From a virus: DNA of 64,000 nt. Positions within the stretch are counted from its first letter, which is position 1. Each line of letters opens with the position of its first letter. This document shows, piece by piece, positions 32,665 to 33,360 of the stretch. The DNA lies in the IMG/VR virus record IMGVR_UViG_3300029310_000003; one strand, given 5' to 3'. The notes under the pieces were generated by a model, which worked only from the letters and a program-made list of their open reading frames with translations, made no database searches and was not told the origin of the DNA. Position numbers and translations under genes: made by a program.

Positions 32665-33360
32665 ATGGCAAAGGAAAACAAGGATATCAAGCGGTACATC
32701 AAGCTCACGTTTATCGAGCCGGTACTTGGCACATGGCCCAGCAATGAAAATGTCGCACGCGACTTCATCGCGTCCAAGTCCCCGGACGCGGCCACCATTG
32801 AAGAGGAGATCGCCGCCATCGGCGCAGAGAACTATTCCGACAAGGCGATGACGGTATTCCCGCGCGTCGATGGAAAGCCCGTTTTCTACGACTACCAGAT
32901 CAAGGGCTTTTTCAAGGATACCTGTGGCGCACTCTCCCGCGCAAAGCACACAAAGTCCAGTGCCCTGAAGGCGTACAAAAAGGTGATCGACGGCATGATC
33001 TTTCCATTCCCGAGAACCATCGCCATTCAGGTAAACGGCGAGATCGGCGAATGCCAGCGTCCACTTCGTGCGCAGACCGCGCAGGGCGAACGTGTGAGCC
33101 TAGCAAATTCCGAGGAAATTCCGGCGGGCAGCACGATCCGTTTCGGCGTCAAGCTCAACGATCCGGCGCACGAGGCTCTTTTGAAGGAATGGCTCGATAA
33201 CGGCATCGACCGTGGCCTCGGCCAGTGGAGAAATTCTGGAAAGGGCCGATTCATCTATAAGATGCTGGACGAGGAAGGAAATAGCCTCGGAGGAACGGCA
33301 GAGGACTACGAAGCGCGGAAGTTGGAGGAAAGCTTCTTCCCGGAGGAAAAGGCGGTCTGA
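32665..33360 (+). CDS. solitary RAMP-like (Cas7/Csm3-like motif pattern) protein
   Basis: Four motifs are present: YIKLTFIEPVLGT (aa 11-23), YDYQIKGFFKD (75-85), EEIPAGSTIRFGVKL (150-164), and the G-rich loop GLGQWRNSGKGRF (184-196). The fold assignment is inference. Confidence 0.35.
   Translation: MAKENKDIKRYIKLTFIEPVLGTWPSNENVARDFIASKSPDAATIEEEIAAIGAENYSDKAMTVFPRVDGKPVFYDYQIKGFFKDTCGALSRAKHTKSSALKAYKKVIDGMIFPFPRTIAIQVNGEIGECQRPLRAQTAQGERVSLANSEEIPAGSTIRFGVKLNDPAHEALLKEWLDNGIDRGLGQWRNSGKGRFIYKMLDEEGNSLGGTAEDYEARKLEESFFPEEKAV

Follow-up and report, generated by a model that had tools for sequence, protein, structure and literature searches.

A minimal RAMP gene and an adjoining pentanucleotide array in a phage of gut Clostridia probably form a VIPR system distinct from type II

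A temperate phage of gut Clostridia carries a gene for a minimal RAMP protein next to an array of pentanucleotide repeats, and the two very probably constitute a VIPR (Viral Interference Programmable Repeat) system. Both lie on the plus strand of IMG/VR virus record IMGVR_UViG_3300029310_000003, of which 64,000 nt (hereafter the window) were analysed; the vipr-like gene spans 32665..33360 and the vrRNA-like array 33378..33671. In all probability, the locus also represents a VIPR clade that differs from the characterised type II systems in repeat consensus, array architecture, and the absence of an accessory gene. A sequence-only reading of the same DNA had described the protein as solitary, naming the repeat field merely to locate the gene, and had listed, among its possible roles, part of an unrecognised system. 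The former description fails, as the adjacent same-strand repeat field is the partner of the protein and is linked to it across related loci, and the latter option proved to be the right one, the locus being VIPR-like. VIPR as such was already described in 2026; what may be new here is that the clade reads its code and delimits its modules differently.

VIPR is the subject of two 2026 preprints from one laboratory (bioRxiv 10.64898/2026.04.26.720920 and 10.64898/2026.04.26.720927), which describe Vipr as an ancestral minimal RAMP of ~20 kDa, encoded by phages and built from an RRM core, a helical bundle, a thumb, and a G-loop. The vrRNAs are described there as intergenic, flanking vipr, and consisting of 9-16 YNNGG pentanucleotide repeats plus an invariant structured tail. 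One Vipr protomer is reported to bind each repeat, giving a right-handed filament that sequesters GGY, while the NN bases pair with double-stranded DNA with one target base skipped. The natural targets named there are competing phages, satellites, and prophages, with transcriptional silencing as the outcome, and type II systems, e.g., those of Escherichia phage SUSP1 and a P. fulva prophage, are reported to be experimentally programmable guides. Moreover, about 670 Vipr representatives and seven VIPR types are mentioned. The methods name repeats of the forms NNNGG, YNNNG, and NNNNG as well as arrays that are staggered and vipr genes that stand alone; a vap gene beside vipr is typical but not universal.

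The open reading frame at 32665..33360 begins with ATG, is preceded at a distance of 9 nt by the ribosome-binding site GGAGG (32651..32655, plus strand), and encodes 231 aa, just as had been read from the sequence. All four RAMP motifs pointed out in that reading were present in the translation, namely YIKLTFIEPVLGT (residues 11-23), YDYQIKGFFKD (residues 75-85), EEIPAGSTIRFGVKL (residues 150-164), and the G-loop GLGQWRNSGKGRF (residues 184-196; 33214..33252, plus strand), the last being delimited by alignment with SUSP1 Vipr, and on the predicted structure they map onto beta1, RRM helix 1, the post-thumb strand, and the G-loop, respectively. Profile searches with the 231-aa protein gave zero matches in Pfam, nothing significant in PADLOC, a non-significant best match in PHROGs (E=0.48), and in NCBIfam only a sub-threshold match to the Csm4 model cas5_csm4 (E=0.1, residues 160-204), and the best match in a PDB sequence search was also non-significant (E=0.15). 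The family is large, with >7,900 clusters at 90% identity in a collection of 5.8 billion proteins, none of them with a Pfam domain, and 1,932 clusters at 50% identity (E<=1e-3). Its members are usually 190-210 aa long, and residues ~200-231 of the window protein form a C-terminal extension private to its subclade. When 60 diverse members, which share 40-81% identity with the window protein, were aligned, G81, K84, R132, R135, S149, W188, R189, and G194 proved invariant and K38, within a helical insertion, nearly so; the thumb segment (residues 126-152), including the invariant R132 and R135, was the best-conserved stretch. The size of the family and the invariance of these residues across 60 diverse members indicate that the four motifs did not arise by chance.

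An AlphaFold2 model made from a 33-sequence alignment (mean pLDDT 75, pTM 0.73) predicts a beta-alpha-beta-beta-alpha-beta core. An N-terminal helical insertion (~25-66) and a double beta-hairpin (residues 128-152) are added to it, and the last strand is preceded by a glycine-rich loop. The insertion (residues 25-66; 32737..32862, plus strand) comprises helices at 28-31, 45-52, and 54-60, modelled with low confidence, and the hairpin strands together with the conservation delimit the putative thumb CQRPLRAQTAQGERVSLANSEE (residues 126-152; 33040..33120, plus strand). A Foldseek search against PDB returned 85 matches at E<=1e-3, the best 50 of which were all chains of class 1 (Cas7-based) CRISPR effector complexes (E 3.7e-7 to 2e-4) covering types III, IV, VII, and Cas7-11; the recognised chains among them we take to be Cas7 subunits. 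Examples include SsoCsm (8bmw_H, 3.7e-7) and type VII Cas7 (about 1e-6, target TM 0.57-0.63), followed by Csm3 of L. lactis and E. italicus, type IV-A3 Csf2, and Cas7-11. In addition, the best BFVD match, at 70% identity, bears the automatic name 'Cas system-associated RAMP superfamily protein'. The RAMP (Cas7/Csm3-like) fold suspected from the motifs was thereby borne out, and the protein is, as modelled, a minimal Cas7-like RAMP that combines a single RRM core with a helical bundle, a thumb, and a G-loop, and its gene lies outside any CRISPR-cas locus. The earlier statement that the 64 kb hold neither a CRISPR array nor cas genes also agrees with our searches, in which Rfam at gathering threshold detected two tRNAs only, TRF reported nothing CRISPR-like, and no Cas profile matched the 231-aa protein or nine other long ORFs. 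The nearest solved folds are the Cas7 backbone subunits (Csm3, Cmr4, type VII Cas7, Csf2, and Cas7-11; TM 0.45-0.63), which likewise bind RNA periodically through a thumb insertion and a glycine-rich loop. In contrast to them, the window family has no significant sequence-profile match, its period is 5 nt instead of 6, and its repeated unit would be recognised by sequence. Unlike the class 1 effectors, the window locus has no Cas5, Cas6, Cas10, or Cas11 partners and no repeat-spacer array.

Comparison with the validated Vipr of phage SUSP1 (KT454805.2) points to a relationship with VIPR. A periodicity scan of the SUSP1 genome recovered exactly the gaps flanking a 195-aa CDS (28474-29061, minus strand), which contain YNNGG repeats and are the published vrRNA sites, with one vrRNA upstream of vipr and three downstream. 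BLASTP of the window protein against SUSP1 Vipr gave 27% identity over 142 collinear residues (E=0.002), and hhalign of a 60-member profile of the window family against a 40-member profile of the SUSP1 clade yielded a full-length alignment over 182 collinear columns with E=3.2e-5 and a probability of 72.5%, i.e., not above 95%. SUSP1 residues 24-60 were paired with the helical insertion of the window protein, which thus aligns with the Vipr alpha-helical bundle, the role of the bundle being taken from 10.64898/2026.04.26.720927, and the G-loops GVGDWRPRFGRF of SUSP1 and GLGQWRNSGKGRF of the window were aligned with the W-R pair kept. The cryo-EM preprint assigns the first G of GGY to H17 and D177 of SUSP1 Vipr and the second to R138 and W178, with the pyrimidine contacted by R179 and helix 1. 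As H17, D177, W178, and R179 align with T23, Q187, W188, and R189 of the window protein, the pocket for the second G and the next base is kept, whereas both first-G residues differ (H17->T23, D177->Q187), which fits a single conserved G. Taken together, the alignments suggest that the window protein is remotely but collinearly homologous to SUSP1 Vipr, with support that is moderate because the homology is remote.

The array at 33378..33671 (plus strand, 294 nt), delineated by unit parsing, lag-5 autocorrelation of G, and comparison with related loci, comprises 57 head-to-tail units, and the gene lies directly upstream of this repeat field and of the tyrosine integrase (33768..34853, plus strand; Pfam PF00589), as had been described. 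Its units are G-M-N-N-N pentamers and GCAAAG-type hexamers, each hexamer being followed by a run of G-initiated pentamers, and the lag-5 G autocorrelation reached 0.469 (z=8.1; 5000 shuffles, shuffle maximum 0.194). Eight GCAANGG motifs, starting at 33378, 33409, 33440, 33481, 33512, 33543, 33594, and 33661, bound seven modules of 31, 31, 41, 31, 31, 51, and 67 nt, and the eighth opens an 11-nt partial module (33661-33671) beyond which the periodicity decays. RNA folding of the repeat field revealed no excess structure (z = -0.1) and no conserved structured tail. A terminator scan detected none between gene and array; the array is embedded in early operons and flanked by no terminator. The GGGACA-type promoter previously attributed to the gene was not recovered, as a sigma-70 scan of 31500-35400 found no promoter-like site. 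A translated repeat protein was ruled out, the 5-nt period being incompatible with coding. The module part at 33549-33593 is internally repetitive, (GCAGA GTTGC/GTCAC/GTTGT) x4, and TRF assigns it 3.9 copies of a 10-nt repeat; should the modules be guides, it would specify a periodic target.

Across related loci, the array is tied to the gene. Post-gene non-coding DNA was similarly purine-rich in three unrelated phage contexts (the window and loci L003 and L001), which served as the starting comparison. In a set of 69 dereplicated loci from IMG/VR plus the window, GCAAAGG occurred in 184 copies on the gene strand and 0 on the opposite strand, ~31-fold above the rest of the loci. The density of GC[AG]ANGG was 2-2.7 per 100 nt over the 400-700 nt after the stop codon against a background of ~0.07, and on the opposite strand it was 0-0.01 per 100 nt within the first 600 nt. 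Start-to-start spacings of the motif were quantised at 26, 31, 36, and 41 nt (5n+1), and in the flanking array every fifth position was G (80-94% conserved), followed by C or A. Across 174 dereplicated arrays, position 1 was G in 92% of units (1.45 bits) and position 2 was C/A (0.46 bits), with <0.2 bits at each of the other three positions. A second set of 80 more divergent genomic loci (49-70% identity), mostly from Oscillospiraceae, Faecalibacterium, Ruminococcaceae, and Lachnospiraceae, with some Coriobacteriia and a few Chloroflexota, Synergistaceae, and Acidobacteriota MAGs, provided 71 testable loci. A period-5 array stood directly 3' of the gene in 59 of these, and at least 11 of the other 12 had it directly 5' on the same strand; the twelfth, L165, had no array above threshold. 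Punctuation in the high-GC Coriobacteriia takes the form GCGA(C/A/T)GG. In the reciprocal test, IMG/VR was scanned for the array signature alone, and a gene of the family (HMM E<1e-5) adjoined the array on the same strand in 107 of the 119 resulting loci (array 3' in 94 and 5' in 13) and lay on the opposite strand in 0 of 119, while five of the 12 misses end at a contig end. A same-strand array, 3' or 5', is hence tied to the gene family essentially everywhere (~240 loci), and it is an obligate partner of the RAMP protein, which is not solitary.

A few loci depart from this arrangement. L253 (IMG/VR) carries a 1.3-kb period-5 array at 6270-7600 with no Vipr-family gene detected in the 8.4-kb locus, and this array may be an orphan or paired with a far more divergent RAMP. 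L288 (IMG/VR), a near relative of the window element with the same Spo0A_C-like gene and integrase, has an unrelated 196-aa gene in place of vipr and ~130 nt of array left (about 5260-5390) upstream of int, which looks like a natural loss or replacement of the system. Furthermore, extra same-strand period-5 G windows were found 2-4 kb from the main array in L093 (-2636..-2436 relative to the vipr stop), L088 (-3786), L129 (-2159), and L116 (+1869); by analogy with SUSP1, these windows may mark further vrRNA loci detached from the first.

Array sequences diverge more quickly than the gene and turn over by whole modules. Gene cores were 97-100% identical between phages, yet the arrays were only 62-100% identical, and in alignable pairs the substitution rate at the phased G was 0.017 compared with 0.038-0.078 at the other four positions. 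The length distribution of array indels has a sharp peak at 31 nt (34 events) and further values of 26, 40, and 62 nt, indicating that the array is modular with whole-module turnover, which resembles that of repeat-spacer units. The commonest module, 31 nt, consists of one hexamer and five pentamers, i.e., six units, and the free Vipr-vrRNA filament is reported to have a helical repeat of six subunits. This match may be a coincidence or may offer a structural reason for the punctuation.

The window locus and type II VIPR share several features. Both have a phage RAMP of ~20-25 kDa with, as modelled for the window, an RRM core, bundle, thumb, and G-loop, as well as same-strand intergenic 5-nt arrays that flank the gene 5' or 3' and combine a conserved motif with hypervariable other positions, and both are without a CRISPR array, cas genes, or an adaptation module. 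However, the window array reads X-G-M-N-N with one conserved G, whereas type II reads G-G-Y-N-N; arrays of the window clade are continuous, with GCAA-N-GGCA every 26-41 nt and modules of 4-7 units, whereas type II has separate vrRNAs of ~100 nt with 9-16 repeats. In addition, the window clade lacks the pseudoknot/hairpin tail and the vap gene of type II, and its hosts are Clostridia and Coriobacteriia rather than Proteobacteria. The window locus is not VIPR type II, because it has one conserved G, 4-7-unit modules, and no excess structure. In the register of the preprints, the unit X-G-M-N-N is close to the YNNNG/NNNNG classes, and VIPR types I and III-VII, for which related consensus repeats (NNNGG, YNNNG, NNNNG) and staggered arrays are mentioned, seem to fit the window locus. 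The punctuation GCAA-N-GGCA reads as a unit with fixed N4N5 = AA, an extra base, and a canonical GGC triplet, and to us it resembles a boundary element more than guide sequence.

Given the homology to published type II systems, a mechanism can be proposed in which the array would be transcribed with or next to the gene and the protein would polymerise along it into a helical filament, one protomer per 5-nt unit. The thumb and the G-loop (W188/R189) would keep the phased G, along with the C/A after it, flipped out, and the variable bases would be presented for gapped pairing with the double-stranded DNA of a competing phage, satellite, or prophage, so that binding would silence transcription without cleavage. 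It is a tentative and rather doubtful further step that this very abundant gut-phage clade uses a code unlike the published GGY/NN one with its one-nucleotide skip, in which one base per pentamer is sequestered and three or four are read, and in which guide modules of 26-41 nt are bounded by GCAA-N-GGCA. If true, VIPR would have a second code, denser and more compact, that has a processing logic of its own and works without an accessory protein. Together, the altered G1 pocket and the matching change in repeat consensus allow the published structural model to be tested by natural co-variation of protein and RNA, and the punctuated 31-nt modules may illustrate how guides are delimited without a structured tail. 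VIPR has been proposed as the viral ancestor of CRISPR RAMP effectors and as the smallest known RNA-guided DNA-binding platform; the vap-less single-G form ranks with the commonest of the unannotated gene families that prophages of human-gut Clostridia carry, and such a system could shape prophage-prophage competition in the microbiome.

The absence of targets under any rule tried, the shortness of the modules, the compositional bias of the variable positions (C-poor, A-rich), and the placement of the array within early operons with a terminator on neither side would also suit a RAMP-RNA filament that does not guide, in which the protein coats periodic RNA with one protomer per G-initiated unit and serves as a scaffold, as a sponge, or, within the early operon, as an element for mRNA stability or antitermination, with no sequence-specific targeting. 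Such phasing has precedents in the TRAP-trp leader (GAG every 5-6 nt) and the TMV assembly origin (G every 3 nt), where a conserved base at the period of the subunit footprint phases an oligomer on ssRNA; these have unrelated folds and no guide function, and the analogy is one of mechanism only. The filament without guiding is nonetheless unlikely, as hypervariable arrays beside near-identical genes and whole-module turnover are expected of diversifying guides and not of a scaffold, and as the homologous type II systems are experimentally programmable guides.

Two further explanations are much less probable still. The decoy against type III CRISPR systems that had been put forward earlier finds no support, and its broader form, a stand-alone Cas7 mimic (with or without RNA) that sequesters Cas10, Cas11, Cas5, or crRNAs of host type I/III systems, is very improbable. 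The predicted fold does resemble Csm3 and Cas7, the gene is an early phage gene, and some RNA anti-CRISPRs are known to form aberrant Cas complexes (PMC10651486); however, the array is unlike CRISPR repeats, the family spans hosts of several phyla with the same private 5-nt code, and the dedicated RNA partner together with the homology to Vipr makes a host Cas partner needless. The sole Rfam match of the repeat field, to CRISPR-DR26 at 33667-33691 (minus strand), is sub-threshold (27.6 bits vs a gathering score of 39, E=0.11); it begins at the last array unit (33667-33671), extends into degenerate post-array sequence, and was dismissed as noise from GA-rich repeats. Slightly less probable even than the decoy is that the repeat field acts as DNA, i.e., as origin iterons, integrase arm sites, or a packaging site, with its adjacency to the RAMP gene being mere synteny. 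The field does lie directly upstream of the integrase in the window and L001 and near SSB and replication genes in other phages, but it switches between the 5' and 3' sides of the RAMP gene while keeping to the gene strand, its 5-nt period sets successive Gs on opposite faces of the duplex, which is unsuited to duplex binders, its strand asymmetry is complete (184 vs 0), and published vrRNAs share its design. Integrase arm sites and origin iterons were specifically rejected, since it is the RAMP gene that the array follows from locus to locus, not int or replication genes.

For the VIPR reading, both accessory genes and targets were searched for. No conserved vap-like gene was detected, as, among 63 representative loci, even the most frequent neighbour family, an HTH regulator, was present in only 16; this and the next, SSB (13/63), represent ordinary early-region synteny. 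Five read rules combined with three spacings (15 combinations) gave no excess over unit-order shuffles in 3.5 Mb of related phage loci. In an exact scan of IMG/VR with three gapped patterns taken from the longest run, two patterns had zero matches and the 16-nt rule had 23 scattered matches in unrelated environments, approximately the chance expectation for 16 specified bases. A mismatch-tolerant guide search within the window, including a second phage-like region at 43-64 kb, yielded nothing above controls. These target negatives, obtained with a limited search space and a limited set of rules, weigh little, because the authors of the preprints needed pangenome-scale profile searches.

In the window, the VIPR locus forms the right end of an integrated element with the order Bro-N and ORF6N antirepressor-like genes, Spo0A_C-like regulator, 92-aa ORF, vipr, array, tyrosine integrase, and tRNA-Gly; the tRNA-Gly, 3' of the integrase (35167-35240; ARAGORN), is likely the integration site of the element. 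In other phages, the gene lies in an early lytic operon between the antirepressor and SSB/replication genes, and the contexts of the family (integrase, antirepressor, SSB, and RusA), along with the IMG/VR loci, indicate a mainly phage or provirus setting. The left 35 kb of the window contain a large serine recombinase (3727-5235; Resolvase and Recombinase domains) in addition to the tyrosine integrase at 33768-34853, as well as an SNF2-type helicase (12598-14037), and may hold two mobile elements, nested or side by side, and not a single prophage. Host genes at 35.1-38.3 kb (tRNA-Gly, tRNA-Met, HU, PemK toxin, and aminotransferase) separate the VIPR element from the second phage-like region (43000-64000, minus strand), which encodes a tape-measure/minor-tail protein (48864-53771; PF10145), a 1,302-aa DUF6242 protein, and a GDSL lipase-domain protein, and is possibly a co-resident competitor. 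A 99-nt tandem repeat (63439-63647; 2.1 copies, 76% matches) lies inside this second region at the right edge of the window.
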